Below are positions 11,131-63,999 of a stretch of DNA of 64,000 nucleotides, in pieces. Position 1 is the first letter of the stretch; each line of letters starts with the position of its first letter. Made by a program: the position numbers and the translations under genes. Origin of the DNA: Somniosus microcephalus (taxonomy: Eukaryota); the NCBI GenBank assembly GCA_052327205.1, contig CM126218.1:67952001-68016000 (forward strand), in the 5' to 3' direction. The notes under the pieces are model-generated. The model saw only the letters and a program-made list of their open reading frames with translations. It searched no databases and was not told the DNA's origin.

Positions 11131-11168
11131 CATATGTCACCAAAACAAACTACAGGAAACTCTTGTAC

Positions 11169-12165: not shown

Positions 12166-12774
12166 TACTGTACTCAGTTTCTCTTGAATTTGCTGACACT
12201 GTCCACCTCCTCGATCTCCCTGTGCACGCTGTTCCACTCCTTCATTAACCTTTGTGTGAAGTAGTTAAATCTAAACCAATAGGTTGTACCAAGAAGCATG
12301 TTAAGAAATACAACACTTTCACTTACACTTAGCAATTCAGCCATTCCAAAAATGCACTTAAATGGCAAGGCAGAATTGGGGATTGTTAACTGATGCTGGA
12401 AGTGCATAAAAAATAGTTCTTTGTCTTATAAAACAGTGTCCACAATCTAACCCCAGTCACTAAATCCCTTAGTGGAGAATGCCTTTTATTAAACAAACAC
12501 AAAGAGAATTGTGAGGGTCTGAAATCAATACAGTTACCCTACATTTGACATTCCTGATTTGTGCATCAGCCACAGAGGAATCAGCCTCTGATCTCCAGCT
12601 CTGCTGCTGCATTCACTTCAGGCTGGAGAGAATACCAACAGAAAACTCTAAAGGGGATTGACCTTATCCACAATTATCATCCACTGCAGTCACTCGCTTA
12701 ACATCTAACTGAAGCAGTACCCTGCGACAGGAAAAGGATTTCACATTGTGTCCATGCTCTCACTCTTCTCTGTA

Positions 12775-20400: not shown

Positions 20401-22390
20401 CAAAAGCAAAATACTGCAGATGCTGGAAACCGGAAATAAAAACAGAAAATGTTGGAAATACTCAGCAGGCCAGGCAGCATCTGTGGAGAGAGAAACAGAA
20501 TTAACCTTTCAGGTCAATCAATGACCTTTCATCACAACTGGAAAAAGTCGGAAAAGTTCTGATGAAAAGTCATCGACCTGAAACATTAACTCTGGCCGCG
20601 ATTTCACCAGCAGAGGCGGGATCGCAGCGAGAGAGCTGGGTGGCGGGTCCCGGTCCCGTTCCCGGCTCCAGCCTGCTCTCTCCAAGTGATTTTATGTAGA
20701 TTGGGCCTGTTAAGCCCGCCCTGTGCATTTCTCTGCCAATTAAAAGGAAGCGGGTCTGATGACATCATTTGATGACATGTCGTCAGCCTTAAAGGGGCCA
20801 TGTCCACATTCATTTTGACAGTTGTTCTGCAGCATTGAGGTGCTGCAAACACTGACCAGCATTGCACGGCTGCACCCAGGCTCTCGTATGACTCCCTCCA
20901 TATGTTTATGGAGGGAGTCACCGCACGCAGGGAGGTTTCTCTTCCCTTCCCATGGGCGTAAGAGACCTCGCCAGGAGATCCAAGCAGTCTGGTTGCACAA
21001 TGCACAGGAGGACACAGCAGGAATGTCGTCAGGAGGACCAGGCTGCAGTGGCGCAAACCCTTCAATGATCTGAGCAGATCACGAAACGTTACTGCCAAGC
21101 CACACTCAACCTCATCCTGCTGTGCCACTCATCACATCCACATCACTCTGCCTGCCCTACTCCTGCAGATCTTTACTCACACCAACTTACCTGGCACTTC
21201 CACTCATCCCCCTCTATCTACATCATCACTTCCCCATCTCACTAGCCACTCCTCACACTCACCCTCATCCTACTGCAAGCATACCAACTAACAAACAAGG
21301 GTACGCACTGGAGTGGTTTAGCCAATGTTCATGAAGTTTCTGTTAATGTTTTGTCAAATATTGAAATCTATACTTTCAACACTTTACCTTATTGGACAGA
21401 TCTGTGCACACCTTTAGAAGTGTCTTAGTGAGTTCCAGTGAATGCTGAGACATAACTCCCCCCCCCACCAATTGTGATGTATGACAGGAATGGCTTGGAC
21501 ATTATAGGGATGCTTTATGGTGCTGGTGTGGGGTGGTGTCAACCTGGTGCATCATGTGGCAGCCAGGGTGTACAGTGTCAAGTGAAGTAAATCTGGCCAT
21601 GGTGATGCCATCGCTGGCCTCCCGGGCAGCAATGTTGTTGGGTGCTGATGCCCTGTGCAACATCAGGTGATTGCGGAGAAGGTTGGTGTTGCTGTTGGTA
21701 TGCCTGGTGATGTTCGTGCTGGGGCTGATCGTGGAGGGATTCAGAGGACCAAGGTGAGATTTTTTCAAGGGCACCGATGTTGCTGGAATAGATGGCAGCT
21801 GAAGTTGAGATGACAGAAGCGATCTGTCAATGATGAGAGAGCTTGCTCCAAGGAGGTGACAGTGGATAGAGAGTTTGCTCCAAGCACTTCCAAACTGCAT
21901 ACAGCTCAAAGGCATCATCCAAGTTCTGAAAGCTCAAGCTTCTGACATTGGAAAGTGACCAGCTGTGAAATGGTAGCTTTCATACCACTTTTGCAGCTGT
22001 CACCTATTCACAGCAATGGGTAGACAGAGAGAGCCCGAGCTACTTACCTGACATAATTCCCGAGTGACGGGAAGCTTGTTAAAAAAAAAGTGGTAAAATA
22101 GAAATAGGCTGGCAAAATAGTAGTTAACAAGCTTTTAACCATCTTAAATGCCTACCCCGCCGCTTGGTATCAGGTCTGTTCTGAAATCGCAGACTCGACA
22201 CTTTGGAAACTTACATGGAGGCGGGTTCGGAGCGGGTTCCCAACCCGCTGTCAATCATTTCGATTTTGACAGCAGACCCGCCTCCAAACCCGCACTCTGA
22301 GCGCCTGCAAAATTCAGCCCTCTGTTTCTCTCTCCACAGATGCTGCCTGCGCTGCTGAGTGTTTCCAGCATTTGCTGTTGGCATTCCTTT
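20401..22390 (+). mobile_element. Short Penelope-derived inverted-pLTR unit interrupted by a Harbinger derivative
   Basis: An inverted pLTR is followed by a forward pLTR that resumes at 22321. The 8-bp TSD ATGTAGTA lies at 20393 and 22391. Confidence 0.8.
20594..22320. mobile_element. Internally deleted, degenerate Harbinger element
   Basis: 3-bp TSD TCT, imperfect TIRs (ggccgcgattt / aaattcagccc), a Myb/SANT remnant on + (about 20860-21090) and a transposase-like remnant on - (about 21500-21900). Confidence 0.75.
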
Positions 22391-23983: not shown

Positions 23984-24751
23984 GGCCCAGTAATTCCGGG
24001 CACAACGCGTGAGTAAGGACGGGGTACCCACGCGTGTGCCCGGAGGAATTGCTGGTTTTCAGCTTGCACAGCGCATGCGCTGAAAACCGGCATTTCCTGT
24101 CCTCTGACCCAAGGGGTTAAGAGGCAGTACGCGTGCGACTGCACAGGCAGTGCGTGCGCAGTGAAATTCCTTTTTTCCCCCCCACAGTTGTCAGAGTGTA
24201 AAGGCCTCCAGTCTTTACGCGTGGAAAAACCAAACGTAAGTATTTAGTTTTACAGGTAAGTGGGCTTTTAGTACAATGTAGAATTTTTTTTTCCACAGGT
24301 TTGTTATTTTTAAAGAATTTACAGTAAGGTAAGTTTAGTTTTAGACCCTATTTTTAAAAATTTTATTTTTTACAAAAAATTGATTAATTGTTTAAAACAT
24401 TTTTAAAAACTTATTTATAGTTAATATAATCAGTGGGATGTTTTTTAAAATTTTATTTAAAGTTAAAGTAGTGTTTTGGCAGCCCATACTTTTCATGAGT
24501 TTGACAGCTCTTACTGTCAAACTCATGAATGAGTTTCCCCTCCCCTGATTGGCTGCACAGTGCTCACCTGATCCCAGCCGGCACATCGCACTAACTACGC
24601 CGCTGGATCAGGTAAGCACATCGCGCCGACATCTGAACCGGGCCAGTGACAGGAAATGCGAGCAGGCCCAGGCTTCAGATGTCGGCGCGCAGGGTGAGTG
24701 CAGATCGGGGGCTTGCACGCGCGGCAAGCTCCCGATCCTAATTTCAGGGCC
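23984..24751 (+). mobile_element. Non-autonomous Harbinger-type element, diverged relative of 10386-11130
   Basis: TIRs ggcccagtaatt / aatttcagggcc, flanks AAT and ATT, and colinear similarity to the 10386 copy. Confidence 0.8.
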
Positions 24752-26608
24752 ATTGCAATTTAGAACTGGTTCTATCCAATCCTCTAATTAAAGCCTTCAG
24801 TTGGTTTTCTAAGTGGGTACTAATTGTGGACAGACTTGAGATTGAATTTTGCTTTTCTCACTCTTTAGGTAGACAGCACACAAATCAAAATGATCACTGA
24901 GCCATCCAGGGAAACCTAACCATCTCCCCTTCCCCCCCCCCAAAACTATATTATCTGGTGTTACCAGGTTGCCTCTCATTTAAGTGTTAACCAGGCCTGA
25001 TCTTGTTGAGCTTTTGAGATTGGACATTTGCAGAGTAGCGCAGCCACATGCAGATAGGCTTTTGCCCAGATGCGATTACAATGTGCAGCCTACGGATCTC
25101 GAGTCAGACAGGTTACCGTTGTGCTACTTTCGCTAATGTTTCCCCAGTGCCTGCCTATCTGTTTCTAATTATACCAATGTTGCTACACTTGCTATGAAGA
25201 ACAGCTAGCTCACAGCAGGAATCTGGTCCCACTGAAATAAATGCCATTAAAATTTGTACATGAAACAAGCTCACCAAGAGCCATGCTGATTAGAAACCCC
25301 TGTTCAGTTTGAGTGAAGTAACTTTGTATTACAGAATATTAGGAGGTAAAGATAATCCTGGGAGTGAGCTACAGGCTACAATCTAATTGCGGGCTTCAAA
25401 TATCACCAGGTACCTTGAGTGTAAAGCAGGAGTGCTTAATAATTCCAAACCCCTTGATTAGATTTCAGCCTGCAACTCACTCTTGGATGTTCCATTAATC
25501 AAACGAACACAAATCGTGTTATTTTAGTAACGGTCTTCTCTGAATACACTTGAACAATTAGGACGTAAGCTTGGTTCTGTCTTGAACTAGACATTGATGC
25601 AGCTCTTGGAGGGTTAAAGCTCTCTGAAGTGTTGTAGCCCTGGAACGCCCTACTACAAAGGGCTACACAGTCGATGCAGTGCCCTTCATCTTTCACTCAC
25701 TTCGGTAATAATCAGGCACGTCAAAGGAACTGCTCTCCTCCTCTCAGCCACTGCACCAAGTCATTTAACTTTCCAGATGAGGTTTGTGATGGTGAAAAAT
25801 GTTGCAATTACCTTCATCTGTGCAAAGCCGCCTACTCAGCTTCAAACAAATTTCCCCTCTCCGGACAGTCCTGAGTAACTATTATACAGCAATAAGCATT
25901 CCGTTAATAGAAGAAAATGCCACAGGAACAATGGCAATTCAGGAGCTCTCTTCCTCTCACTCCCAAAGATAAGCTGTGGATTTGGCAAATGTTACTGCAC
26001 CACTGTGACAGAACAGATTCCCATTGCAATACACAGGGTTACTGAACATCTGCTCATAAAATATGGCATTTTTTTTTATTGTGCTTCATTTCAGCAAACC
26101 AGATAACATTTCCATGTCAAATACCAGTTGTGACCCCTTATATGTGAGGCTGACTACAAATGAATAAAGTCAGTTTTGGGGAGAGAGGGGAAGATGGAAG
26201 GCAGGAAGGGCTCAGAGTAAAACACAAAACATTTTACAAGGCTCAATGGCCTAGAAATTCAGTATAGCCATGTTTGGGGCGCTACAGCCGGGCGTTCGCT
26301 AAATTTAGCGCCCGGCGCAACTTAGCGCCACCTTCGCTGATATTCAGTTGCATCGCCCCAAGAGGTTGCTGCTGCGCTAAAGCAGGCAATGCACGACTAT
26401 CATAAGGCGCTAAGCCGGCGTGCCGAGGCGCCAACACCGAGGACGGGCGTAGCGCAGGTGCGGCGAGTTGCTGATTGAAGGCAGACACGCTGGCGCCGGT
26501 CAGCTCTTAAAGGGGGAGGGTGGACTTGTTTGGCTGCCACGCCCTGCACACTGCAGCCCTGAATCAAGGCCTGAACATAGCTGCTTCAACAGTTCAACGC
26601 CCACGACT

Positions 26609-28404
26609 ATGGAGAAGGCTAGGGAGCGAGCGCAGCACTTCAGCGAGGGTGCCCTGAAGGTACTGGTTGGCGCAGTGGAGCGCAGGCGACTTGTCCTCTT
26701 CCCTGATAGTGGCAGGAGGCCGCTGCCCAGCAAGTATAGAAAAGCCTGGAGGGAAGTGGCAAACAGGGTGACCTCCAACAGCATGGTTGCCAGGACTCCT
26801 GTGCAATGCAGAAAAAAGTTCAACGACCTCACTCGGGTTGTCAGGGTGAGTATCCTTTCCAGTATCCTCCTCATCCCTGCATATGCACCTCACTTTATGG
26901 CCAAAGGGACCTGAAAGCCCCAATGCCCAGCCCTCATCCAACAGCTATGGGACTCTCATGAAAATCACTTGCACATTCAGCACTTTACACACTGTCAGGG
27001 CTATTCCACCATGGGAGGCAGTGCAGGCAAGATCAGGGCTTGACACTGTCAGGGCTATTCCACCATGGGAGGCAGTGCAGGCAAGATCAGGGCTTGACAC
27101 TGTCAGGGCTATTCCACCATGGGAGGCAGTGCAGGCCAGATCAGGGCTTGACACTGTACTGAGAGGCCATCCTTTCTCTTGCAGGGCAAGCTGGCCCACA
27201 ATCGCAGGCAGCAGCGACGGACCGGGGAGGCCGTCCTGACCTCAAAGAGCTCAGCGACCTGGAGCAGCGTGTGGAGCGCATTATGGCAGGCCAGCTGATT
27301 GGCCCCGTCGCCAGTGGAGATGCCGACCCTGTTCTGGACAGCAATGGTAAGGTCATCACCTTTTTGACCTCTCTCTTTCCACTTGTGCCTCACACCAGCA
27401 TCCTTTGCCACTATCGTACCAATGCAGTGCATAGCAGCACTTATGCCTCCCTCGCTGCCGTCCTGTCCTCACTCTAAAGCAACTCTTGTGCCTCCCTGCT
27501 TTCAGATGCTGAATCGCCAGGTGAGGAGGCGGGCCCTCAAGCTGCCACTGTCAGTGATTCTGAATTCGAGGGGAAGAGGAAGCTGGCCCATCAGTGCCAC
27601 CCTCAGCCGAGGCAGCCCATGGCCATGATGGGGACATGTCTTCCCTGGAAGGGAGCAGGGGGGAAGGGTCTGAGGAGAGTGAAGCTCCGGGGCCCAGCGG
27701 GCTGCAGCAACGCAGGAAGCTCGGCGGCCTTCTCCCCGGAGGGTGAGTGCAGCCTCCAGTCCTGCTACAGTGAGCGTAGAGGAGGTGCGGCTCCTTGGTG
27801 AAATGGGCGCTCAGGCTGAGCGCAGGCACACTGAGCTCATGGCTGCAGTGGCAAGGATGCCTGACCCCATAGAGTCACTGGCAAGGAGTGCTCAGGAATT
27901 CGGGGCAGCACAGGCCAGGAGTCTGCAAGAATTCAATGCAGCACAGGCAAGGAGTCTGCAGGACTTCGCGACAGCCAAGTGCTCAGTCGTGCCATGCATT
28001 CACTGGCTGGTCTGATGCAGACACAAATCAGGGCCACACGGGCACTAACTGCTGCCACCCTCGCTGGGTCGGCCAGGCATCGCCAGGGCCCTCGCCGCGC
28101 CGCAGCAGCCCAGCAGTCTGTGCTTCAGCAGATTGCTGCGTATGCTGCAGTGCTGGCCCGTGCGAGTGCCAGTGTATCAGCCGACCAGGGAGTGCCTGTG
28201 CTCTGTCAGGTTGGCAGCATTCCTGCAGCCAACACTGTCACTCCTCCACTGCAGCTGCCACCACCCGCAGGACAGACTGCTGCCGCCCAAGCAGAGTTGG
28301 AGCAGTCAGCAGCCGGGCCCTCCAGGCCGTCCCCCAAGGGCATCTGCCGTCTCACCCTCAGCAGCCTTCCCCCAGCCTTGCTGCAGCCACTGGGGTCCCA
28401 TTGA
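26609..28404 (+). pseudogene. Harbinger Myb/SANT-like DNA-binding protein gene (3 exons, frameshifted)
   Basis: Exon 1 (26609-26845) reads MEKARERAQHFSEGALKVLV...KAWREVA...RTPVQCRKKFNDL then GTGAGT. Exon 2 (27185-27346) reads KLAHNRRQQRRTG with a 1-nt frameshift in a G run. Exon 3 starts at 27506. The 3' end is approximate. Confidence 0.85.
26988..27157. repeat. 54-bp tandem repeat x3 in intron 1 of the Myb/SANT gene
   Basis: ACACTGTCAGGGCTATTCCACCATGGGAGGCAGTGCAGGCAAGATCAGGGCTTG, near-identical copies. Confidence 0.95.
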
Positions 28405-28504
28405 GGAGGAGCTGCAGGGCGGGAAGGGGCCACTCGCGGAAGCGAGGCGGATCACCCTCGCTGGGGAAAAAGTACACAGTGTGGCCAAATGTTTTTTTTT
28501 ATAT

Positions 28505-28610
28505 ATGAAGGCCGAGAAGGTTTTTTTTAATATATGAAGGCCGAGACTGTTGTGTTTGTTTTTTATGAAGGCCGAGACTGTTGTGTTTGTTTTTTATATG
28601 AAGGCCGAGG
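28505..28610. repeat. Four copies of ATGAAGGCCGAG with T-rich spacers, between the convergent Harbinger genes
   Basis: Directly visible, period about 30 bp. Confidence 0.9.
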
Positions 28611-28872
28611 ATCATGGTCATTTTTGTTTAACTGTTTTTTTCATTTTCTGAAGGTTGAGAGAGCCAGTTATGTCTGACTGTTTTTTGGGGAGGTTTATCT
28701 GAATGAGTTTGTCATGCGGGAAGGGCACAGAGTTTGCACAGTAAAAAAGTTTCTTCAATCACATTGTCCATGTTTGCACTTTGAACTATTTGTTGCCTTG
28801 ACCGGCTGAGGGCTTGCGGAGTGGCTCCATTCATGTTCTTTCAATGGCACAAGCCATTCCCTGAGAGGGGGC

Positions 28873-29957
28873 CTAGAACCAAGTTGCAATAAGCCACCGA
28901 CGGACGGCCCTTGCACTTTGTGCCTCCCTCCCGTCTTGGTGCTCCTCCTCCTCTTCTGGTGGTCCTCCAATGTCTGCTGGCAGTGGCTGAGTCCTGACGA
29001 TAGCCAGGTTGTGCAGCATGCAGCACACTACAACGAAATGGGAGACTCGCTCAGGCGAGTACTGTAGGGCTCCTCCGGAACGATCCAGACAGCGGAACCG
29101 TTGCTTGAGCACGCTGATTGTGTGCTCAATGATGTTCCTGGTAGCTTGATGGCTGTCATTGTATCGCTTTTCAGCAGGGGTGCTGGGCGCACGGAGCGGG
29201 GTCATCAGCCAGGTGCACAAAGGATAGCCTTTGTCCCAAAGAAGCCATCCTCGTGGGTGAGCCTGGGCTTCGAAAATGTCTGCCACAGAATGAAGGCATC
29301 GTGGCTGCTGCCTGGAAAGCGGGCATTGACAGCTAGTATGAGCTGCCTGTGGTCACACACCAACTGGACGTTGAGCGAATGGTAGCCCTTCCGGTTGCGG
29401 TAATCCTCGGCATTCTGTAGAGGTGCCCGCAAAGCCACATGCGTGCAGTCAATGGCACCCTGGACCATGGGGAAGCCCACTATTCCTCCAAATCCCATTG
29501 CACGCTCTTGCTGCTTGTCCAGGGTCATGGGGAAGGAGATGTACTAACGTCTCCTTCTGAAAAGGGCATTGGTCACCTGGCGGATGCAGCAATGTACCGC
29601 GAACTGGGAGATGCTGGCAATGTCCCCAGTAGCGGATTGGAAGGAGCTGGTGGCGTAGAAGTTGAGAGCCACCGCCACCTTCACTGCCACCGACAGAGAC
29701 GTCCTGCTCCTCAGCTGTGGCTGCAGATCTCTGCGAAGCAGGTGGCAGATCTCAGTGACCACCTCCCTTCTGAATCGCAGCCTCCGAACACACTGCTCCT
29801 CAGACATGTTCAGATATGAGAACTGCTGGCGGTATACCCTGGGTGGGTAAGGCCTCCTGTGCTGACGCCTGTTGGCCCTTCTCCGTCTGGCCATGACTGG
29901 CACTCTCTCACGGCGTCTGAGCCCTTTGAATGCAATGCAGTAAGCCAACGTTTCCAC
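28873..29957 (-). pseudogene. Harbinger (HARBI1-like) DDE transposase, disabled
   Basis: Motifs GAIDCTHV, NRKGYHSLNVQLVCD, PGSSHDAFIL, DKGYP and RNIIEHTISVLKQRFRCL. There is an in-frame TAG at 29544-29546 and a frameshifting deletion near 29286. Confidence 0.93.
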
Positions 29958-32900
29958 CCACTGCAGCCCCCATTATATGTGGCGACTCAAGTTAAATCCA
30001 AGTGCAAAGCTCTGGCCTGAAGCACCTCTGCGAGTGCGGAGTCAAACCAGAAAGCTCTCTCCCTTTGTCTCTCTCCAAATATCCATCTCTCACAAAATGG
30101 CTGCCACTTATAATGCAGGAGGAGTCCCCTTTAAATAGCGCCCCCCCCCCCCCGGCGCCCCGTTCCCCATTACCAGTCACTGGGGGCGCCAGGCGCACAG
30201 AAGGGCGGCGCCACTGAAGTTTCGGTTCGGGGCGCACCAAGGGCGTTGCACCATGAAATGACGTCAGGATCTGCGCACGCAGCTGAGCGGGCGCTGCGGT
30301 TTTGCGCCGCCGCTAAATCTTGAGTGAAGTTCGCGAGAGGCGCAGATCGCGCCGTGCCCGGGCGCTAGCCGCTTAGCGCCCCACTTCTCCTCCTAAGGCG
30401 CTAGCGGCTGGCGCTAACAACTGAATTTCTAGGCCAATATGTTCTAGAGATTTAGCCAACTGTACCAAGTTGCATTTGCATAACACTTTCACACAATAAA
30501 ACATTTCAAAGAACTCTATATAGTGGGAATCAGTGGTCATCAGGCACAAGAGGGAGCTAGAAAGGTGATTGTAGTCAAAAAAAAGTGGAGGTTTTGAGGA
30601 GATTCTGAAGGGGAGGTGTGGGAAGGCAGATGTGTACCTGAAATGCAGACCAGTTAACTGAACATCTGCATGGGGGCAGAATTAAGTTTATGATGCAGAA
30701 TGTGATCACTGGTCATCTATGGGGGGAAATGGACCATAACTAGTCAACATGAATTTCACATCCTCAGGATGCCTCAAAGCACTTCACAAACAATTAGTTC
30801 ATTTTGAAGTGTAGTCATTGTTCTTATATAGGCATAGACCAACTAACCTTGTGGCTATGCTTGCAGCTTTTTCCTCCCATCTTATTGCACTAAGTGGTTA
30901 GATGGAAATGGAGTTCGCCATTCATGTAACACTCTGACATGCAACAAAGCCCAGTACTAAAACGGCAAAAGAAAATCACCACAAACATCCGTGTGGAATT
31001 CTTGTTGCACTTGCATTGCAGAGCAAATTTGATATGTGAAGCTATGGGACATATTGCAAGACTGACTCCCTAAAAGCACTCTTGGGAAAACATGTACTCA
31101 CTTACTGCAGGGCAGATCTGACAGCCAGCCTTTAGGGCTCCGAGTACCTTAGTACTTTCTCTCATTGTGAAGAGATGTGACTTGCGTTGTGATGCCACTT
31201 TTCAACAGTCACATTGGGTACTACAAACTCTCTTCTTTCATCCCCCAGCATCTCCCCTCAAAGCAGAGACTCATGCTGGCACAGGCAACCTTGCCCACGC
31301 AACTAATTTGCATATGCGACGAGACAGTGTTGTCAGGCAATTCAACTGTGGAAGGCATCACAGCTCAACCCAATCTCATCCTCACCTAACATCCATGCAC
31401 TCAATTTTAAGCAGAAATGGCTGGATGGAGATCAATATTGGAAACACTGGCTGATGTTTTCCCTCTCTTGTCTGGGAAAAGTGAGGCCACCCACCCAGTC
31501 CAGAATCATCCAAATGAGAATTTTCTCAGCGAGTATACAGTACTTAACACTGATAAATCTAAAGTGTTTGCGATTGGCAACTGCTTTGCTGAATATTTTC
31601 ACTCCATCCACAGGCATGGTCCTGACCTTCCTGCCCCTTCCCACTCTGACCAGCCTCCTTACACTCTTCACAACAAGCTCACCGCAAACATCAGTAACTG
31701 TATGTAGTCTTCCTCCTGGTCTGAACAATGACATCAGCAACTACTGATGGTAGCCATCTCCCCCACCCCCCCCCCCCACCTCTATTGTTCTGCCAGTTTT
31801 TCTCCATTCTGTTCAGCAGTCTGTCCAGTGCCTTTTCACAGCCATAGATGATTATTTTTGGCCATCATCCTTTCATTCCTTCCCCAGTTTTCAAAAGTAA
31901 AATCCCATTCACAGGCCATTAAACCTCAGTGCTGCTCTCTACTGGTATTTAACATATTTGACCTTGCAGCCTTCACCCATTGACCTCTGTTTTGGTCGGA
32001 CCCATAAAGCGTCTCGCCTGGCTATCCATCTTGAAGTTCTGAGGGGTCTCTACCTGAAATGTTAACCTGTCTTCTCTCTCTTTGGACACTACTATGCAAT
32101 TGCCTTTCTTGTAGATAAAATCTGAAATCAAACAGCAGTTTTAAAACAGGTCAGCCGGTCACTGCAGCAAAGCCCCAAATCTCAAACATAGAGGGAGGGA
32201 GAAATCATACAAAACTGCAATTCCCCCCTGCCCCCAAAGTCTCGGTGTTCCTTCTCCGAAAAGGCAACAGCTCCAATCGAGGTACATTTCTACAGGCATC
32301 AGCTGTTCTTTGGTACCTCACCCATATGTGAGTACTTTCTTGTAGGAGTCACTGGACAGTAATGAGGAACAAGATCTCTGGCTGATTTTTCTCCTCCCTA
32401 GCCCCAAGACACTGAGGCCAGTTTTAGCATTGAAACTCTGTAGAGGTGTCTGGATGATGTGATGTTGAAACCATAGCCCTCTATGGAAGGAGAAGCTAGA
32501 TGAGCCTGTTGGCCTCTTGCATGAACTGGTGGCCACGTGAAGATCAGTCCAGTTATTACAGACAGGTCAAACTCGAGGATTCAGATCTATGTGCTTTCAT
32601 TACTATGCGCTTTCATTACTATGCTTGTGTTATCGAGGGAAGCCCATTTAGAGCTTTTTCATGTTTTTTGTCTTGCTGACAGCAATAAATTAGGTCTCAG
32701 GTAGCAAACACCAGTAAAATCTCAAATAGCCACCCAAAGGTTTCTCGATGGAATAAGGAGGCCCGAGATGTTCTGGCACCAACATGTGGCATCATGTCAA
32801 GACACAGTAGCAGCACTCATGATGGCTCATATGAATATAAATTAGAAATCACTACATACCAAATGACCTCAACTGGCAAATTTATCAACAGTTACACAGC

Positions 32901-33895: not shown

Positions 33896-34093
33896 CAGAA
33901 TAAAAACAGAAAATGCTGGAAATACTCAGGTCAGGCAGCATCCGTGGAAAGAGAGAGAGTTTGGACGAAAGGTCATCGACCTGAAACATTAACTCTGTTT
34001 CTCTCTCCACAAATGCTGTCTGACCTGCTGAGTATTTCCAGCATTTTCTGTTTTTATTTCAGATTTCCAGCATCTGCAGTATTTTGCTTTTGT
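33896..34093 (+). mobile_element. Minimal (~200 bp) Penelope-derived foldback unit with a central hammerhead-like motif
   Basis: Inverted pLTR end followed by the forward pLTR and tail. The 10-bp TSD ATATGAAAAG lies at 33886 and 34094. Confidence 0.8.
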
Positions 34094-36342
34094 ATATGAA
34101 AAGTGGAAATAAGAGCCGACTAGAATTCAATATCACCTTAAGCAACAATGAAGATTTCTAGAGCATTTTACTGCCAGGAACCGCAAGTTGACAACTTCTG
34201 CAGGTAAACTCTCTACATTCGGGGTGAAGGGATTTGTATTTGATGGTGATGGTCGGAATAAAGTCACAGATAAGCCATGTATGGAAAGGGCACAAGTGGG
34301 ACGTTTTGCTGAAATGTGAAGTTAACCACTACATGAACGCTGACCTCTCGACTAACCATCTGTTTTGTGTGCGTGCAGTGTGGAATATTCTCTAAGCACC
34401 TGCTTCTAATGAAAGCGCCTGTGTAAATAATCGAGGGCATCTCCCTAGGGGTCAGGAATGATTTTAATAAATGTTTGTTTTGCGTCTGTAGAACACAGTT
34501 GGAATAGATGGATAGCTTCATAAAAGGAGCTATATGTAGGGGCTGAGTTGAAGGTTCCAATTGCAAAATTCTGTATCATGCGCAAGATTAAGGCTACTAA
34601 TCCAGGTGCATCGTTGCAGGACTGCATTGCAAGGAACGCCAAGATGAAAAGAGTACTTAAAAGAATAGACAGATAAGCTCAAAGGAAAACTGTAGTCAAA
34701 TGATCTGCACAGCAATTTCACTGACATCAAAGATACAGGAATGGGCACACTACAAGAGAACAATCTCGCCCTCAATCATCCTAGTCTATCTGCTCAGCTG
34801 AAATGAGGAGCCGCTTTGTAAACAGCATTATTTCCACCGCGAGCAAACAAAACCCTGAATCATGTGCCATTCCTGAATGTTAAATTTTCACAACTCCTGG
34901 TCTTTCGCTATACTGTAATTCTCAGAAATTTCAGCACAGAAAGCCTTTTGACCCATGTCCATGCTAACTCCCCATCATAGCCATCTCCTCCAATCTCATT
35001 TCCATACACCTTTTAATATTTTTCTTGGCGTTTATCTAATTCACTCAAATGTCATGATTGACTTGACTACAAGTCACCCGCGATAACATATTCCATATTC
35101 TATTATTGTAATCCTTTGTGAAAAAATGTCTTCCAAACCTCTCCCTTTATTCTTCTAGTACAAATTCTGAATTTAGATTACATCTCTAGTTGTTTTTTTA
35201 TACATAAAAGTCTCATGATTAAAACCAGACACTTTAATACCTGATATCATCCTAGTAATTTCACTCCGCCACCCCACTGCCAGAAAACATCCTCCAGCTA
35301 TTGTGAATTTTTTTCAATGAGCATCTCAAAGTGTTGTGCTCTGCGACGCACTGAATTGCTGATTCCTCATATTATATGGCAGGGTTTCAGCCGATTCATT
35401 TTGTACACAAACTGCAATGTAGTAGTCTACACAATGATTTATTTTAATTCTCTTATAAAGAGGAATATCAACACTCCCTCAGTGCTTCAATTTGGTTAAT
35501 GCTCCACATGTTTTCTTACAAAGCTATAAAGACTGCAAGGGTCTTTGGTTTGAGATGCATTAGATCAGCTGAGGTAGAGTGGAGATGGCATTAAAATAGG
35601 ATTTGAGGGACCCTGGATTGTTTGGGTGGGGGCGGTAAAACCTAACAATAAAGAATCAGTCAGTCATTCAGGAGGATGCAACAGCGAGAGAAAGGTAAGG
35701 GGAAGGGAGATGGAAATATGAAAGCACTTCATCACACTTACTATAAAATTATTTACTTTGAATTGGCAACGACTTATATAGGGAGACACAACATTCATTT
35801 TGCACATTACAAAATACCACAAACAGCAATGAAATGAGTGGCCAGTTTTTCCCAAATAGTGGCATGGGATTTATAGCATCCACCTAAACCACTGGAATAG
35901 GCAGAGAGCGCCTTGGGTTTGTCAGAAGCACAGCTCCTCAAACGATGCTGCACTCTGTACGGAAAGTGCATTGTGTGTCTATGTTGGGCAAGAACAGATT
36001 CAGACTCAGCTTGGCTGCGACTCCTGCATGAACAGCCTGCCCGACATTCACTGTCCTGACTCATGCATGAAGATTGGCCTTATAGAGGAGATACTATAGC
36101 ACGAGTTACCATAGGAGGGAAGAAAATTAGAGAATGGGAAAAAAAATTAACCCTTTGAAAGACCATTTGCTAGACTGATCTGAAAGGGCAAACTCCAAGT
36201 TGCAAACAAACTGCTCAGAAGAGAGTTCAAACACACCACTATTGGGTAGTACAAATTGCAGAACCCTCAACAGCCATCATAACCATGTCAGTTTTTTTTT
36301 TAATTAAAAATTTCTGTTCAACTTCTACTCCTCTTCAGTCAT

Positions 36343-36515
36343 GGGGGTAATTTTGACTTTGTGCGATTGTGTAAAACAGGCGACAGGGAATTGGCAGCCC
36401 ATTTCACATCTCCCTCGATTTTTAGTTCTGTTAAATTAAATGGGGAGAGTTGTTAAATGGGTTGCCGATTTGCTACGACCCATTTTATACTATCACACAA
36501 AGTCAAAAGTCTGCC
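36343..36515. mobile_element. Palindromic MITE (Harbinger-like)
   Basis: ttttgactttgtgcgat...atcacacaaagtcaaaa; the whole element is an imperfect hairpin. TSD CAT. Confidence 0.7.
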
Positions 36516-37249
36516 CATGGTCTATTTCTAGGACAGTTTCTCACAGAGCAGAACCCTCACCCAAGTGGCCATTCTTGGGTATGTTGGTGGGTCGTGTGCC
36601 CACAGGAGGCAGCAAAAGAAATTTTCAAAACATGTATGCATTCTTTCCACAGCAGAAGTTGCTGGATAGTAAGCAGAAACGTGAATAACGGCTGATTTCT
36701 TTTCCACCTCCTTAGCCCAGGCCTGCTGAGGCCAACTGTAGAGCCCCATCTGCCACCCACTAACTCAGTACAGACCAGGAAATGAACATGCCACCTTCTC
36801 GTTAGTGTTGCATAGTACTACACCAGACGGTGCCTCTAGCCAATAGGGAGCCTAACTATGAATATTCAGTGTCTTTGAGCATCTAGCTCTGAGCATTAAC
36901 CTTCAGTTTTTTTTTATCATTTCAGATGAAGAAATTTCAAAGCAAGTGTTTTCCATTTAATGTGAGGTAGCAGATGGTGATGTCACACCACTTGCTGCGG
37001 TTGGCTAAAGAACATAGGGAAACGACAATACAAACATAGGCTCCTCTTTTTAAAAAAAATTGATTCCATAAAACAGGATTATGCTGGTAATTAAACAGAA
37101 GATGTGTTAACTACCGTCCTGCGCGCTGCTGAAAGCAGACGACAGCTCCCAGGGAGCTAAAACGAGCGGCCAGCCTGCCCGCCTCAGCTGCTCTCACCGC
37201 CTAGACTGCGGATAGGCTGGTAAAATTCAGTCAGGTTTTGGTTAAACTA

Positions 37250-38037: not shown

Positions 38038-38152
38038 TAGATCAAACTCCTTCCATTTACCCCACTATAGAATCCCAATAGACAAACTCTTTCCATTTAC
38101 CCCATTGTATAGAATCCCAATAGATTAACTCTTTCTATTTATCCCCATTATA
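38038..38152. repeat. Imperfect ~41-43 bp tandem repeat x3
   Basis: taga..aactc.ttccatttacccca.tatagaatcccaa repeated. Confidence 0.8.
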
Positions 38153-38233: not shown

Positions 38234-40511
38234 GGCCCAGAAATTCCAGAACGGGGCTTGCAGCGCGTGCAAGCCCCGTATTTACACTTACCCCGCGCTA
38301 CTGCCGATCAGCTCCAGGGACGCCTGGAATTGGTGTTTCCAGAAGAAGAATCCCGGGCAGCGTATGACGTCACGCCGCCCAGGAGTGCAGCCAGCGCGAA
38401 GTCAGGAGTGTGCAGTGCAAGTGAGACTCGCCCCTTGAGGTCTCAGTTTCACTGGACACGCCCCCATGTTTCTGTCAAGCTGCTAACCATTTTTACATGC
38501 AAAGCAGCAGTTTAAATAGGTTTTTGGAAGTTTTTTGAAGATTTTGGTAACTTTCATAAACTTTTTAAAATGTTTACATTATTTTGAGTAATCTGAAGTA
38601 GTTTTAAAGAGAATTAAAGCAATTTAAAGACTTTTAAAAGCCCTAAAAGAATTTTTTAAATTCCATTTATTTATTTAGCAATGTCGTCGTCATACGTGTC
38701 TTCACACTGTTCCCTTTGGGGAACTGTATGAAGTGGTGGAAGGATTTATGGCCATGATTAACGCTCATTCCGTGACCGTAACCATCTTTGAACCAGCCAT
38801 TAGGGCGGTTAGTCCTATGGCGGGAGGGTTTTACGGGCTCCCACAAGCTATACAAGGAGGGGGGGCCACCCACACCCACGGACGCAAATATCCCACTGGA
38901 TGTCAACCCAGAATTTAGAGCCGGAGCTCCGACTCCACTTGCCGGGACTGTCTGGAGCGGGGTTCGAAACCCTACCCTGATCTGGCCCAGCGGCGGGGAT
39001 CCTACCGCTATGACAAAGGCCCAATCCGATTAGCAACGTGAAATGGCAGCATAGGGCTCCAGTCACGGGGAGGGAAAAGGCGCAGGAAACGTATGGGTGT
39101 CACCTTTTGTGCGGAGTGGGCCTTTCGCGTAGCAGTAAGCATCCCCGCCACTGGGCCAGAAGGAGTAGGGTTTTGAACCCCACTCCAGACAGTCCCGGCA
39201 AGTGGAGTCGGAGCTCCAACTTTAAATTCTGGGTGGACATCCAGCGGGATGCTTGCGTCCGTGGGTGTTGGTGGCCCCCCCCCCTCAGATGGGTTGTGGG
39301 AGCCCGTAAAACCCGCCCGCCATAGGACTAACCACCCTAATGGCTGGTTCAAAGATGGTTACGGTCATGGAATGAGCGTTAATCACGGCCATAAATCCTT
39401 CCACCACTTCATACAGTTCCCCAAAGGGAACAGTGTGAGGATACGTACGATGATGACCTCTTGCGCAATGCACCTCCTTGGACCCTCAGTCGCAGATGCG
39501 AGGGGGCAAGTTGTGCAATTGTTAAATTTTTTATTTTATTGACATGTAAAATGTTGGCCCAGTAATTCCCTTCCAAATGCGCTAGTACGGTCGGGGTACT
39601 TACGCATCTGGCCGGATGAAATGCCGGTTTTCAGCATGCACAGTGCATGTGGGGAAAACCGGCATTTCCTGTCCTCTGAACGAAGGGGTTCAGAGGCAGA
39701 ACGCGTGCGACTGCACAGGCAGCGCGTGCGCAGTATAATTCGCCGCTTTCATTAATGCTTTCAGTGAGGTCCAGTCATTACAACTTACACATGAAAAAAG
39801 CATGGGTACAGTTGCTCCAGAGGCTGCGGAGGAAGATATTTCTTATCGTGGAGCTTCTGAAAGTATGTATGTCTGTATATATTCCTTTGCGTGTTATGTA
39901 TATATTCCTTTACTTATGTGTATGAATGTATTATTTAATTATGACTTTCAGAGAAAGTAACTTATTGGAAAATCATAATTAAAAATATACATTCATACAC
40001 ATTAGTAAAGGAATATAAAACATACATACATATACGTAAAGGAATATATGTGGACATACATACATAACTCATTCTCACATTCCATTCACACAGCCACAAT
40101 TGCTCCTTCTACCTACCCTTCTGAAAACCCGTTTAAAAAAAAAAAAATTAAAGTTTAAAAATTAGTTAAAATTTCTTAAAATAACTTCCCTCCCTTTCCC
40201 AAACCTAAATATTGCATTTCATAAGCTCCTCCATAAAATATATCTCCTTCCCCAGCCAATGAACAACTTTACACTTGCTTTTTTTAAGTGCAAGTTCTAG
40301 GGACTTACCCTCACTGAATCCATCAGTGAAATCTACAAAGTTCACTGCGCAAGCGCTGCCTGTGCAGTCGCACGCGCTGTGAATAGACCTCGGGTCTGGA
40401 AATGCCGGCGTTCCCCGCATGCGCTGTTCCTGCTGAACGCCGGCATTTCCAACGGCCAGATGCGTGAGTAACCCGACCGTACTCATGCTTCTGGCCTGGA
40501 ATTTCTGGCCC
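38234..40511. mobile_element. Compound Harbinger-TIR element or cluster with nested foldbacks
   Basis: Left TIR ggcccagaaattccag (38234), a second TIR at 39556, and right TIR ctggaatttctggccc (40511). It is unclear which left end pairs with the right end. Confidence 0.6.
38683..39457. repeat. Long inverted repeat with ~346 bp arms and an ~80 bp spacer
   Basis: 38683-39029 is the reverse complement of 39112-39457. Many of the mismatches fall at CpG sites. Confidence 0.95.
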
Positions 40512-44664: not shown

Positions 44665-45653
44665 CACAATAGCAAAATACTGCGGATGCTGGAAACCTGA
44701 AATAACAGAAAATGCTGGAAACACTCAGCAGGTCAGGCAGCATCGTGGAGAGAGAAACCTACTCGGGTCCCCTCCCTCACCTCTTTTTCCGGTACATTGA
44801 TGACTGTATTGGTGCAGTTTCCTGCTCTCGCCCTGAACTAGAAAATTTAATTCACTTTGCTTCCAATTTCCACCCTTCCCATATCTTCACATGATCCATC
44901 TCCGACTCCCCCCGTCCCTTCCTCAACTTCTGTCTCCATTTCTGAGGATAGGCTATTGACAAACATCCACTATAAGCCCACTGGCTCCCACAGCTACCTG
45001 GACTACACTTCCTCCCACTCCGCTTCCTGTAAGGACTCTATTCCATTCTACCAGTTTCTCAGTCTCCGCCGCATCTGTTCTGACGATGCCGCCTTCCAGA
45101 CTAGTGCTTTTGATATGTGTTCCTTTTTCCGCAACCGAGGATTCCCCTCTATTGTAGTTGACATGGCCCTCGACCGTGCCTCTTACACTGTTCCTGCGAA
45201 GCTCAACGTAAGCTCGAGGAACAGCACCTCATCTTTCGATTAGGCACTTTATAGCCTTCTGGACTCAACATCGAGTTCAACAATTTCAGACTATAACCTC
45301 GGCCCTTATTTAAAAAAAATTTTTTTCCCTTTTCTCTCACATGGCAGTTGATGTTTCTGCCATTGCCATTTACACCTCATCTAGAGTCATCTTTTGTTTC
45401 TTAACTTGTTCCATTACCATCTCTTTTTGCCTTGCACCCTTTTGTTTTTTAATCTCTCCTGCCTTCCAGCCTATCACAGACCTTCCCTTTGTTCTTTCCT
45501 CCCTTTCTCTGCCCGTACACTTGCTTAAAACCCGTTACATCTCCAACGTTTTCCAGTTCTGAAGAAGGGTCATCGGCCTGAAACGTTAACTCTGTTTCTC
45601 TCTCCACGATGTTGCCTGACCTGCTGAGTGTTCTTAGCATTTTCTGTTGCTCA
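44665..45653 (+). mobile_element. Penelope-like element with RT fragment, internal deletion and pLTR
   Basis: FFRYIDD and HYKPTGSHSYLDYTSSH...FLSLRRICSDD, a short inverted pLTR end at the 5' side, and TSD CACACTAT at 44657 and 45654. Confidence 0.9.
45553..45594 (+). ncRNA. Minimal hammerhead ribozyme motif
   Basis: ccagtt-CUGAAGA-a-GGGUC(auc)GGCCU-GAAA-CG-UUA-acucug; helix II is retained through G-U pairs. Confidence 0.75.
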
Positions 45654-47695: not shown

Positions 47696-50375
47696 AAACA
47701 TAGAAACATAGAAGATAGGAGCAGGAGTAGGCCATTCGGCCCTTCGAGCCTGCTGCACCATTCAATGAGATCATGGCTGATCATTCAAATTAAGTACCCT
47801 GTCCCTGCCTTCTCCCCATATCCCTTGATCCCTTTAGCCGTAAGAAATATATCCAACTCCTTCTTGAATATATTTAATGAACGGGCCTCCACCGCCCTCT
47901 GTGGCAGAGAATTCCACAGGTTCACCACTCTCTGGGTGAAGAAATTCCTCCTCATCTCTGTCCTAAATGGCTTACCCCTTATCCTTAGACTATGACCCCT
48001 GGTTCTGGACTCCCCGACCATCGGGAACATCCTTCCAGCATCTAGTCTGTCCAGGCCTGACAGAATTTTATAGGTTTTGATGAGATCCCCTCTCAATCTT
48101 CTAAACTCCAGTGAGTATAAGCCCAATCGACACAATATCTCCTCATAGGTCATTCCTGCCATCCCAGGCATCAGCCTGGTGAATCTTCGCTGCACTCCTT
48201 CCATGGCAAGAACGTCCTTCCTCAGATAAGGCGACCAAAACTGCACACAATACTCAAGGTGCGGTCTCACCAAGGCCCTGTACAACTGTAGCAAGACATC
48301 CTTGTTCCTGTACTCGAACCCTCTTGCTACGAAGGCCAACATACCATTTGCCTTCTTAACAGCCTGCTGCACCTGCATGCTTACCTTCAGCGACTGGTGC
48401 ACAAGAACACCCAGGTCTCTCTGCACTTCCCCTTCTCCCAATCTATTGCCATTCAAATAATAATCTGCCTTCCTGTTTTTGCCACCAAAGTGGATAACCT
48501 CACATTTATCCACATTATAGTGCATTTGCCATGTTTCTGCCCAATCACCTAACCTGTCCAAATCGCACTGGAGTTTCATGACATCCTCCTCGCAGTATAC
48601 CCTCCCACCCAGCTTTGTGTCGTCTGCAAATTTGGCGATATTACATACAATTCCCTCGTCCAGATCATTAATATATATTGTGACCAGCTGGGGTCCTAGG
48701 ACCGATCCTTGCGGTACCCCACTAGTCACTGCCTGCCACTCGGAAAATGACCCGTTTATTCCAACTCTTTGCTTTCTGTCCGCCAACCAGTTCTCTGTCC
48801 AAGTCAATACCTTGCCCCCAATCCCATGTGCCTTAATTTTGCACGCTAATCTCTTAGGCGGGACCTTATCGAAAGCCTTCTGAAAGTCCAAATACACCAC
48901 ATCCACTGGTTCTCCCTTATCTATTTTACCAGTTACATCCTCAAAAAATTCCAGTAGCTTAGTCAAGCATGATTTACCTTTTGTAAATCCATGTTGACTT
49001 TGTCCGATCCTGTCACTGCTTTCCAAGTGCTCTGCTATTACATCTTTTATAATGGACTCTAGCATTTTCCCCACTACCGATGTCAGGCTTACCGGTCTAT
49101 AATTCCCCGCTTTTTCTCTGCCACCTTTTTTGAATAGTGGGGTAACATTAGCTACCCTCCAATCCATGGGTACTATTCCAGAGTCTATCGAGTTCTGGAA
49201 GATGACCAGCAATACATCTACTATTTCTAGGGCCACTTCCTTAAGTACCCTGGGATGTAGATTATCAGGCCCTGGGGATTTATCGGCCTTCAGTCCCATC
49301 AATTTTCCTAACACCATTTCCCTACAAATACTGATTTCTTTCAGTTCCACCCTTTCATCAGACCCTATGTTCCCCGGTATTTCTGGGAGGTTATTTGTGT
49401 CCTCATTTGTGAAGACAGAACCAAAATATGTATTTAGTTGGTCTGCCATTTCCTTGTTCCCCATTATAAATTCCCCCGATTCTGACTGCAAGGGACCTAC
49501 GCTTGACTTCACCAATCTTTTTATCTTCACATATCTATAAAAGCTTTTACAGTCAGTTTTTATGTTCCCTGCAAGCTTACTCTCATTCTATTTTCCCTTT
49601 CTTAATTAATCCCTTTGTCCTCCTTTGTTGAATCCTGAACTGCTCCCAATCCTCAGGATTATTGCTTTTTCTGGCCAATTTGTATGTCCTCTCCTTGGAT
49701 CTTATGCGATCCCTAATTTCCCTTGTTACCCACGGTTGAGTCACCTTTTTTATTTTATTTTTATGCCAAACTGGGATGAACAAATTCTGTAGTTCATCCA
49801 TTCGGTCTTTGAATGTTTGCCATTGCCTATCCACCGTCAACCCTTTGAGTGCCATTCCCCAATCAATCCTACCCAACTCGCTCCTCAGACCATCGTAGTT
49901 TCCTTTATTTAAATTGAGGACCCTTGTTTCCTGAGTCAACTACTTCATTCTCCATCTTAATGAAGAATTCGATCATATTATGATCGCTCCGACCCAAGGG
50001 GCCTCGTACAACAAGATTGCTAATTAATCCTTTCTCGTTACATAATACCCAGTCTAAGATGGCCTGATCACTGGTTGGTTCCTTGACATACTGGTCCAGG
50101 AAACCATCCCGTAAACACTCCAGGAATTCCTCCTCCACAGTATTGTTACTAATTTGGTTAGCCTAATCTATATGTAGATTAAAGTCACCCATGATGACTG
50201 CTGTGCCCTTATTGCACGCGTCTCTAATTTCCCTTTTAATGCCATCCCCAACCTCCGCCTTACTGTTTGGAGGTCTATATACCACTCCCACTAATGTTTT
50301 TTTCCCCTTAGTATTTCTCAATTCTACCCATACAGATTCCACATCATCAGAGCTAATATCCTTCATTACAATCTA
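47696..50375 (-). mobile_element. Relatively young CR1 LINE, 5'-truncated (endonuclease C-terminus and RT)
   Basis: A 581-aa uninterrupted RT ORF (47785-49530) with GVPQGSVLGP and FADDTK, an upstream APE fragment (VYRPP, MGDFN, SDHN), and a (TATGTTTC)n-type tail. Confidence 0.96.
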
Positions 50376-61662: not shown

Positions 61663-62042
61663 GATTACATAAGATTACATAGGATATACGGCACAGAAAC
61701 AGGCTATTCGGTCCAACCAGTCCATGCTGGCGTTTATGCTCCACTCGAGCCTCCTCCCGTCTTTCATTATCTAAATCTATCAGCATAACCCTTGTGGTGA
61801 TTATTCTTTATGTTAGTAAGAAGTATTGTGATTGGTTGTTTGTTTCCTGCCTTGGGATATATGCTGTAATCTCATTGGTAGTTGATGTCATGTGATTTGT
61901 GGTGGCCATCTTAAATTCTGTTCTTTCTAGCTTTGGTTGGGACCGGGTGTGGAAAGATGTGCTACAGGATTTTAAAGTTAATAAAGCCTAGATTAGAAAG
62001 GCAAATCTATTCTTTATTTCAATTTATTAACTTTATGTCAGA

Positions 62043-63194
62043 ATGGAGCGATATCTTGAACCAGAACGATTCAATGCTGACCCTAATTCTGCTGGAGTGG
62101 ATGATAAATGGAAACACTGGTATTGTACATTTAAAAACTTTTTGGGCGTGTTGGATCAAGAGTCTCTAAATAAGTTGAACATGATCAACTACATTGCTCC
62201 GGATGTGTATAAGTATATTTTGGACTGTAAAACTTACGAAGTGGCTATTTCTACATTGGAAAAGATTTTTGTTAAACCAAAGAATGAGGTATTTGCACGT
62301 CACCTTCTATCTGCCCGTAGGCAGCAGGTGGGAGAATCTTTGGATACTTATTTACAAGCACTTCGGTGCCTTAGTGTTAACTGTAATTATAAGGCCGTGA
62401 CGGCTGAAGAATATAAGGAAGAATCGGTACGGGATGCTTTTATTAATGGATTACTGTCTAGATCAATTCGTCAGCGGTTGTTAGAAAATAAGACTTGGGA
62501 TCTTAAGAGTGCTTTTGAGCAAGCTTCTACATTGGATGTGGCTCAGAGAAGTTCGGATTCTTATGCTCTTTTTAATCGGCCTGCGACTGTGGTTTCGGCA
62601 GTTCCGGATGAAAAGGAATTATGTGGACTTAATAGGAGTGGTTTACTAGATTCTGAAACAGTTTCTACTTCGGCGGCTGTTGCCTCTAGGATTCAGAAGT
62701 GTTATTTTTGTGGGAACGTCCGGCACCCTCGTCTGAAGTGTCCTGCTCGGGAGGCTGTGTGTAGTAAATGCGGCAAGAGAGGTCATTACGCACGTGTGTG
62801 TAAATCAGCAGGTTCAATTACCTCCTCTGTGACTATTCAGCCTTTAGATAGGGCGTTTATTGCATCAATTTCTGCTGCATTTGCTCATGGCCTAAACAAA
62901 GCTATAGTTACGGCCCAAGTTAATGGGTTGGAAGTGAAGGCCCTTATAGATACGGGCAGTACCGAGAGTTTTTTAAGTCTTCAGTTTGCGAAGGAGAAGC
63001 ATTTGAAAATTTCGCCTGTTACGTATCAGGTGTGTATGGCTCCGACGACTCTCACTTCACAAGTAGCTGGTTGTTGCCTTGTGAAATTGATTCTTCTAGG
63101 TAATACGTATACTGATATACGCCAATCTGTTTTGCCTAATCTCTGTGCGGATATTTTGATTGGTCATGATGTGCTTCAGTTACACGAGTCTTAG
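62043..63194 (+). CDS. gag: Gypsy Gag and aspartic protease
   Basis: 383 aa with two CCHC knuckles (CYFCGNVRHPRLKC, CSKCGKRGHYARVC) and protease motifs LIDTGS and ILIGHD. Confidence 0.93.
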   Translation: MERYLEPERFNADPNSAGVDDKWKHWYCTFKNFLGVLDQESLNKLNMINYIAPDVYKYILDCKTYEVAISTLEKIFVKPKNEVFARHLLSARRQQVGESLDTYLQALRCLSVNCNYKAVTAEEYKEESVRDAFINGLLSRSIRQRLLENKTWDLKSAFEQASTLDVAQRSSDSYALFNRPATVVSAVPDEKELCGLNRSGLLDSETVSTSAAVASRIQKCYFCGNVRHPRLKCPAREAVCSKCGKRGHYARVCKSAGSITSSVTIQPLDRAFIASISAAFAHGLNKAIVTAQVNGLEVKALIDTGSTESFLSLQFAKEKHLKISPVTYQVCMAPTTLTSQVAGCCLVKLILLGNTYTDIRQSVLPNLCADILIGHDVLQLHES

Positions 63195-63999
63195 TCTTTC
63201 ATTTGGAGGGACTAAGCCACCTTTATCTATTTGTGGATTAACCTCTTTATCCATTTCTCCATTATCACTTTTTTCCAATTTGATGCCGGATTGTAAGCCA
63301 ATTGCTACCAAGTCAAGAAGGTATAGCAGTCAGGATAGAGAATTTATTAATTCTGAAGTTCAACGTCTCTTATTGGAAGGAATCATTGAACCTAGTTGTT
63401 CGCCTTGGCGAGCACAGGTAGTTGTCACGACTAACGAGAGACATAAGAAACGAATGGTGATAGACTATTCCCAAACTATTAATAGGTATACTCAATTAGA
63501 TGCGTACCCCTTGCCTAAGATTGATGAGCTTATCAACAAAGTATCTCAGTATAAGGTTTTTAGCACTATTGACTTAAAGAGTGCTTATCATCAGATTCCT
63601 ATTGTTGAGAAGGATCAACCATATACGGCCTTTGAGGCTGGTGGAAAGCTGTATCAGTTTTGCCGAATACCATTTGGTGTTACTAATGGTGTTGCTTGTT
63701 TTCAACGGGCAATGGATGCTTTTATAAGTGATAACTCTCTCTCTGACACCTTTTCATACTTAGATGACATCACAGTGTGTGGCAAATCAAGGGTGGAGCA
63801 TGATTCTAATTTAAAAAGATTCCTTGAAGCTGCGGAAAAAGTTGGTTTAACTTTTAATAAAGAGAAGTGTATCTTTTCGACCACTGAGGTAAATCTATTG
63901 GGGTATATTATCTCGGGAAACAAGATTAAACCAGATCCAGAACGTCTGCGACCATTGATTGATTTACCTTGTCCTACTAATTCTAAGGCTTTGCAATGA
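63185..63999 (+). CDS. pol: Gypsy reverse transcriptase, in a shifted frame relative to gag-pro
   Basis: IIEPSCSPWRAQVVV, RMVIDY, DAYPLPKI, IDLKSAYHQI, PFGVTN and YLDD. Confidence 0.93.

Follow-up and report, generated by a model that had tools for sequence, protein, structure and literature searches.

An 832-bp palindromic insert in a Harbinger-type MITE, probably a dead, 5'-truncated Penelope-like retrotransposition product

The stretch of DNA that we analyzed, a window of 64,000 nucleotides, is repeat-rich and, judging from its sequence, appears to come from a cartilaginous fish. It contains many copies of one Penelope family. Elsewhere in the window, we noted a 600-aa open RT-like frame on the minus strand (47785-49587), which by eye is of CR1 type from its translation, an LTR-retrotransposon gag-protease-RT region on the plus strand (62031-63999) that continues past the window end, a 180-bp degenerate palindrome (36340-36519, 70% self-complementary) that is probably an old MITE, and tandem arrays at 627-1200 and 38038-38149, with units of 25 nt and 42 nt. 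The feature under study is another palindrome, which lies within a non-autonomous Harbinger-type element (Table 1).

Table 1. Coordinates of the palindromic insert, its host element and one Penelope-family neighbor, numbered from the first base of the window
Feature	Positions	Strand	Remarks
Host non-autonomous Harbinger-type element	38234-40511		Left TIR at 38234, right TIR ends at 40511; flanks AAT / ATT
Candidate TSD, left copy	38678-38682	+	GCAAT, 5 bp
Left arm	38683-39028	-	Inverted copy without tail; sense would be on the minus strand under the PLE reading
B-box-like 11-mer	38961-38971	+	In a small hairpin; would be antisense under the PLE reading
Spacer	39029-39111		83 nt; 39071-39112 resembles arm end plus tail start
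Right arm	39112-39457	+	Runs on into the tail without a break
One-sided tail	39458-39514	+	57 nt, GC-rich; holds an extra GCAAT at 39465-39469
Candidate TSD, right copy	39515-39519	+	GCAAT, at the GC-to-AT change-point 39517
Penelope-family insertion	11168-12166		340/344-nt arms, 94% identical, one-sided tail, GIY-YIG-type coding piece in spacer

The palindrome spans 775 bases (38683-39457), and its arms of 346 nt each and spacer of 83 nt agree with the two ~346-bp inverted arms and ~80-bp spacer of the original prediction, which was made from the sequence alone. The same prediction had described the palindrome as GC- and CpG-rich and unlike anything else in the window, and both points held: the arms have 56% GC and a CpG o/e of 0.63-0.74, compared with 44.7% and 0.45 for the window, and no further copy was found in the 64 kb by blastn with word size 7 (best E 0.57) or by nhmmer --max (best E 0.3). 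When the arms are aligned, 312 of the 348 columns are identical, and the others comprise 24 transitions, 8 transversions and 4 gap columns. Many of the differences had been described as CpG transitions, and indeed 15 of the 24 transitions are in CpG context. CpG columns differ at 16/52 and other columns at 16/292 (5.5%), a decay that is ~5.6 times faster at CpG (p = 8e-7). The arms are decaying independently, with a CpG bias, and because they differ by 10% in this CpG-biased way, an assembly fold-back artefact could be ruled out. The differences are also mildly clustered (p = 0.045), which would weakly fit two different template RNAs. Folded as RNA, positions 38660-39540 reach -697.5 kcal/mol (z = -48.6 against 20 shuffles), with perfect duplex runs of 52, 35, 33 and 21 bp within the hairpin.

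The original prediction also had the host element opening with a Harbinger TIR, and this is the case: the TIR at 38234 has 12/13 bases of the TIR of a transposase-bearing element at 26248-30435, and it pairs with the one ending at 40511 over 18/19 complementary bases. The element at 26248-30435 has TIRs and an exact TSD (AAT), with a broken DDE_Tnp_4 transposase on the minus strand and, on the plus strand, a Myb/SANT ORF that looks spliced; it is the probable partner of the MITEs. We found two sister MITEs with the same two ends and an AT-rich middle, at 10386-11130 (745 bp) and 23984-24751 (768 bp); at only 60-84% identity they may be other subfamilies. Their middles carry repeated splice-donor-like and acceptor-like words. 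The 3-bp flanks are AAT/ATT at 38234 and 23984, which are not exact duplications, and are exact at 26248 (AAT) and 10386 (CAT). In the host MITE, the part at 39556-40511 begins with a second copy of the other end, which is 84% like the 23984 copy and 74% like the 40511 end, and it includes an AT-rich palindrome at 39863-40063; this part may be another nested element or, alternatively, a symmetric MITE in its own right.

One earlier suggestion was captured cargo, that is, a piece that the MITE took up and moved, and the position between matching Harbinger-type TIRs would suit it. However, arm, spacer and tail were absent from both sister MITEs (0/2, best shuffle p 0.12) and from the autonomous element, so the palindrome is probably not cargo. 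In addition, the insert has its own candidate target-site duplication, described below, and the 5.5% non-CpG divergence of its arms is far less than the 16-40% by which the MITE ends differ from each other. Capture is therefore very improbable, although later movement of the composite is possible. Most simply, the palindrome is a later insertion into the AT-rich middle (15-22% GC) of a resident MITE.

Two features at the borders of the palindrome were overlooked in the original prediction, which had seen no TSD belonging to it. The right arm, and only the right arm, is followed by a 57-nt extension of ~60% GC, and the best GC change-point, from 61% to 13%, falls at 39517, just beyond the end of this tail. 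The word GCAAT adjoins the left arm and recurs beyond the tail. Based on the tail and the GCAAT pair, the insert is best drawn as 38683-39514, a total of 832 bp, and GCAAT becomes a candidate for its TSD. As a TSD it is short, at 5 bp, and a third copy lies within the tail. GCAAT occurs somewhere in 21% of shuffled 73-nt right flanks, whereas by simple arithmetic a given 5-mer would fall within ~10 positions roughly 1% of the time; the word has weight as a TSD because it sits on the composition border. Helitron and LTR ends were absent from the insert borders.

Foldback and other long-TIR transposons have a TSD abutting both TIR ends and tandem repeats inside the TIRs. The proposal of an undescribed foldback element would make 38683-39457 a non-autonomous foldback or MULE-like DNA transposon with 346-nt TIRs, for which the equal arms, sharp outer ends and short spacer are what one would look for. 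But no direct repeat abuts both arm ends (the flanks at 38682 and 39458 differ), the insert contains no tandem repeats (0/7 TRF rows), and 57 nt of GC-rich foreign sequence would be left over on one side. In light of the one-sided tail and of arms that lack tandem repeats, we consider a long-TIR transposon quite unlikely. It is improbable as well that a non-palindromic foreign piece was inserted and subsequently duplicated in inverted orientation by repair or replication template switch, as a one-off event with no family behind it. Such an event would fit a single copy in 64 kb and the lack of any database match, but a candidate TSD that brackets the entire structure suggests that it was inserted all at once, the 64 kb cover a very small part of the genome, and the DNA collections searched are without animal genomes.

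The spacer has some resemblance to the end of the arm: 39071-39112 matches 39425-39466 at 28 of 42 ungapped positions (67%, shuffle p 0.004-0.006, noticed post hoc), a likeness to which we give no weight. DIRS1-like elements have an internal region complementary to both termini, and a non-autonomous DIRS-like element would offer inverted terminal repeats, an extension on the right only and a spacer related to the arm end. In this case, however, the spacer has no complementarity to the extension (p 0.55), its match to the end is only 67% when the arms are 90% alike, and DIRS elements are not known to leave a TSD, making such an origin extremely improbable.

A self-BLAST search for local inverted repeats returned nine in the window: the palindrome, two in its host MITE, the degenerate palindrome at 36340-36519, and five insertions of one Penelope family, near 7901-8537, 11168-12166, 20401-22379, 33899-34092 and 44667-45648. 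In all five of these (5/5), the family tail is on one side only, with alignment scores of 50-62 there and 12-19 on the other side, and the tails are ~33-40 nt. The five share flanking words of 5, 5, 5, 10 and 8 nt; these control TSDs were chosen as the longest shared words, and the three that are only 5-mers could be chance. In two of the five (2/5), the spacer has PLE-type coding sequence that matches named shark, ray and echinoderm proteins with E down to 1e-40. The Pfam GIY-YIG match in the 11168-12166 copy is weak (E 0.05), but homologs bearing RT or GIY-YIG domains were found among 36/91 candidates for the spacer coding piece, and the six best homologs of the piece at 11543-11743 are named proteins of Leucoraja, Hypanus, Rhincodon, Stegostoma and Mobula. 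Exact hammerhead cores number six in the window, three of them in Penelope-family copies; the copies at 7901 and 11168 are without one, and the five insertions appear to include two subtypes that differ in the core. At 20600-22300, nested in a Penelope inverted pair, we also observed a GC-rich insert whose long ORFs have no Pfam match and whose ends resemble another TIR element.

The layout of the 832-bp insert, with inverted arms, a one-sided tail and a common flanking word, is shared with 5/5 of these Penelope-family neighbors, a likeness that the original prediction had also overlooked. The arm length is close to the 340/344 nt of the copy at 11168-12166. Non-CpG arm divergence in two of the Penelope controls is 11/321 (3.4%) and 13/212 (6.1%), similar to that of the palindrome, suggesting events of similar age. 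Based on this architecture, we believe, with a probability of roughly 60%, that the insert is one dead, 5'-truncated retrotransposition product of the PLE type that landed in the AT-rich middle of the Harbinger MITE. The sense strand would then be given by the position of the tail.

The link to PLEs is one of architecture only. A tblastn search with nine named PLE-type proteins gave no match to the insert (best E 0.18), there was no DNA match to the Penelope copies in the window, and no hammerhead core was found in the insert at 0 or 1 mismatch. A stem-based hammerhead scan was discarded, as it recovered no Penelope control. No RT or GIY-YIG ORF was found in the insert either (Pfam on 8 ORFs, 0 matches), which is expected because the insert would be a short 3' fragment. 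At 57 nt, the tail exceeds both the published 30-40 nt and the ~33-40 nt of the controls. Given a PLE-like layout with a longer tail and without hammerhead, protein or DNA similarity, the insert is not filed in any named PLE clade. Only one copy was seen in 64 kb, so the insert is at most a candidate member of a repeat family, which may well be catalogued already in Dfam or Repbase.

The main rival, which we consider unlikely, is a 5'-truncated non-LTR element outside the PLEs (LINE/SINE, for example of the RTE, I/Vingi or R2-R4 groups), in which the cDNA snapped back to copy 346 nt of itself and then joined the upstream target, the "tail" being the part not copied back. Short trinucleotide runs are common at LINE 3' ends, and the arm closes in a short trinucleotide run. 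An origin of this kind would account for the missing hammerhead and PLE similarity and would suit a short TSD, and R2 proteins have been documented to form inverted 5' junctions by cDNA snap-back (PMC11371274). However, the trinucleotide run is 57 nt inside the right end and not at the TSD, the candidate TSD is not adjoined by a poly(A) or tandem tail, and among long inverted pairs within 2.5 kb in the window, none is on the CR1-like RT stretches and five are Penelope. The inverted 5'-truncated copy with a 30-40-bp tail at one end is described as a general PLE feature, and is stated in the same source not to be seen in non-LTR TPRT (PMC8557442).

Under the preferred PLE reading, the insert could have formed as follows. 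A PLE endonuclease would have nicked an AT-rich target inside the already resident Harbinger MITE, and reverse transcription would have produced a 5'-truncated copy ending in the tail, which is now the right arm plus tail. A second, opposite copy, primed from the other nicked strand or self-primed, would have started 57 nt further in and given the left arm without a tail. Joining of the two copies would have taken place on the inner side, where each was truncated; the longer copy would have had an unpaired overhang, now the spacer, and 5 bp of target would have been duplicated by fill-in. Afterwards, the arms would have mutated independently under CpG methylation. In published work with a purified PLE protein, both strands were nicked and extended, AT-rich ATT sites were preferred, and reverse transcription started at two adjacent positions on the RNA, the distance between which is the tail (PMC11167929). 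Inverted pLTRs have been described with TSDs of 8-10 bp around them and with unrelated sequence between them that is mobilized, along with a self-priming model on an antisense template (PMC3846280).

A variant of this idea is that arm plus tail represent a family of structured RNAs in cartilaginous fishes, non-coding and without a hammerhead, that has no homology to PLE pLTRs and hijacks a Penelope enzyme in trans, a SINE-like PLE parasite that would insert as a ready-made long hairpin. Although we consider this rather unlikely, the B-box-like word runs from the tail inward, in what would be the "antisense" direction, and this may agree with the antisense self-priming PLE template suggested in PMC3846280. 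Under this variant, the 67% echo of the arm end in the spacer could be what is left of an old tandem unit.

The perfect B-box at 38961-38971 and the small internal hairpin that the original prediction had reported are both present. The strict B-box pattern matches only here in the window; among 20,000 shuffled arms it turned up in 0.44%, whereas a looser pattern occurs in 14% of shuffles. A 13-mer at 11277-11289, in a hammerhead-like hairpin of a Penelope copy, has 12/13 bases of the B-box hairpin at 38961-38973, probably by chance, and shows that B-box-like words arise in such hairpins. In tRNA-derived SINEs, an A box and a B box are properly spaced near the 5' end. The insert does not have this layout: the best A-box-like words have 2 mismatches and are 61 or 10 nt upstream of the B-box, which is itself ~280 nt from the arm end. 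ARAGORN found no tRNA genes (0).

We think it highly improbable that the insert is under selection as a gene for hairpin RNA or endo-siRNA, or that it yields a Pol III transcript. The long perfect duplex runs would suit such a gene, as would the strict B-box (p 0.004 in shuffles) and the fold of one arm plus tail, with z = -2.3 on the plus strand (-1.4 on the minus strand). But G-U versus A-C mismatches in the arm pairing are 10:14 (p 0.54), and with this lack of wobble bias we see no sign of selection for arm pairing. Moreover, the CpG decay is neutral, there is no good A-box, a T4 run lies upstream of the B-box at 38829, and we found neither an Rfam match at gathering level nor a host gene. 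As for the earlier suggestion of a source of hairpin dsRNA or endo-siRNA, long dsRNA can form if the region is transcribed, but the mismatch ratio, the CpG decay and the lack of a host gene leave a functional role without support. The palindrome had also been placed within an intron, and we could not confirm this in the part of the window's ORFs that was scanned, as no host exon was found. Of the 143 unmasked ORFs of >=38 aa between 30.4 and 47.6 kb, a scan of 140 returned a single Pfam match, below threshold, and the other three were scanned separately; the window has 503 such ORFs. None of 41 splice-bounded candidates inspected by eye was recognizable as a host exon. A coding role for the palindrome was rejected: 7.6% of shuffles have a frame without stops over one arm, and 19% have no more than one stop across spacer, arm and tail.

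We searched for the insert in several collections. Rfam gave no match (0) in the whole window at gathering level and, by E-value, none near the gathering score; because Rfam missed a control hammerhead, its ribozyme negatives are weak. We set aside a U8 snoRNA resemblance at the outer end of the right arm, which scored 18.4 bits against a gathering score of 41 (E 0.54), because the left arm matched nothing up to E 10, and an miRNA match of 24.5 bits turned up in a control stretch. Also set aside was an HDV-like descriptor match at 38957-39030 with 2 mismatches, one of 50 such in the window. A blastn search of the insert against phages and plasmids gave no match, two exact patterns of the insert were found in 0 GTDB genome contigs, and searches for homologs of two insert ORFs returned 0/11 and 0/2 candidates. 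With phmmer against 1.84 billion representatives there was one match (E 8e-4, 25% identity), and the top ESM Atlas score of 0.84 (recognition 1190) is at noise level. In the literature, we found no paper describing the insert sequence, and six short arm words matched a single, unrelated paper.

Most likely, both the shape of this palindrome and the kind of event behind it are ordinary. Given that five Penelope neighbors have the same layout, a long palindrome in a shark-type genome does not have to be a foldback transposon or a hairpin-RNA gene, and can be a routine by-product of Penelope-type insertion. The significance is thus mostly for annotation. The tail and candidate TSD provide a handle for retrieving and classifying the parent family, and if this family proves to be without PLE homology, it would lend itself well to testing which RNA features are required by a PLE enzyme and how the tail and the inverted copy originate. 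If the region is transcribed, the long hairpin would be a by-product and probably an ADAR substrate, as would other such inserts; heavy editing has been described for lizard Penelope and for palindromic frog Harbinger repeats (PMC5625713).

Among the closest known systems, Penelope/Poseidon-type PLEs (PMC8557442, PMC3846280, PMC11167929) share several features with the insert, namely inverted arms with their outer ends at the element 3' end, a one-sided extension, a short TSD (here a candidate), an AT-rich target, and similar arm length and divergence. Unlike them, the insert is CpG-rich, has a tail of 57 instead of 30-40 nt, and is without a hammerhead core, an RT/GIY-YIG remnant, or DNA similarity to the Penelope family of the window. 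The Penelope/Poseidon, Neptune, Nematis and Hydra clades carry a hammerhead ribozyme in the pLTR, and the insert has none at 0-1 mismatch.

Naiad and Chlamys PLEs resemble the insert in their tandem or inverted layout, their tail and the lack of a canonical hammerhead; the hammerhead-less Naiad clades include fish members, and non-autonomous Chlamys derivatives exist (PMC8557442). The word "shark" is absent from the main text of that paper. In contrast to the insert, whose flanks are AT-rich but not (TA)n, these elements prefer microsatellite targets such as (TA)n. Naiad has an N-terminal GIY-YIG, a CxC linker and a C-terminal RT, to which the insert offers no coding part for comparison.

R2 snap-back insertions have an inverted copy at the 5' junction, as here, but they were observed at rDNA targets in engineered human cells and would give no recurrent tailless end (PMC11371274). 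Finally, the palindromic Harbinger MITE of Xenopus tropicalis is, like the insert, a self-folding repeat and would-be ADAR target that requires no neighboring copy; in the frog the MITE's own consensus (~200 bp) is the palindrome, whereas here the palindrome is a separate insert in the MITE (PMC5625713).
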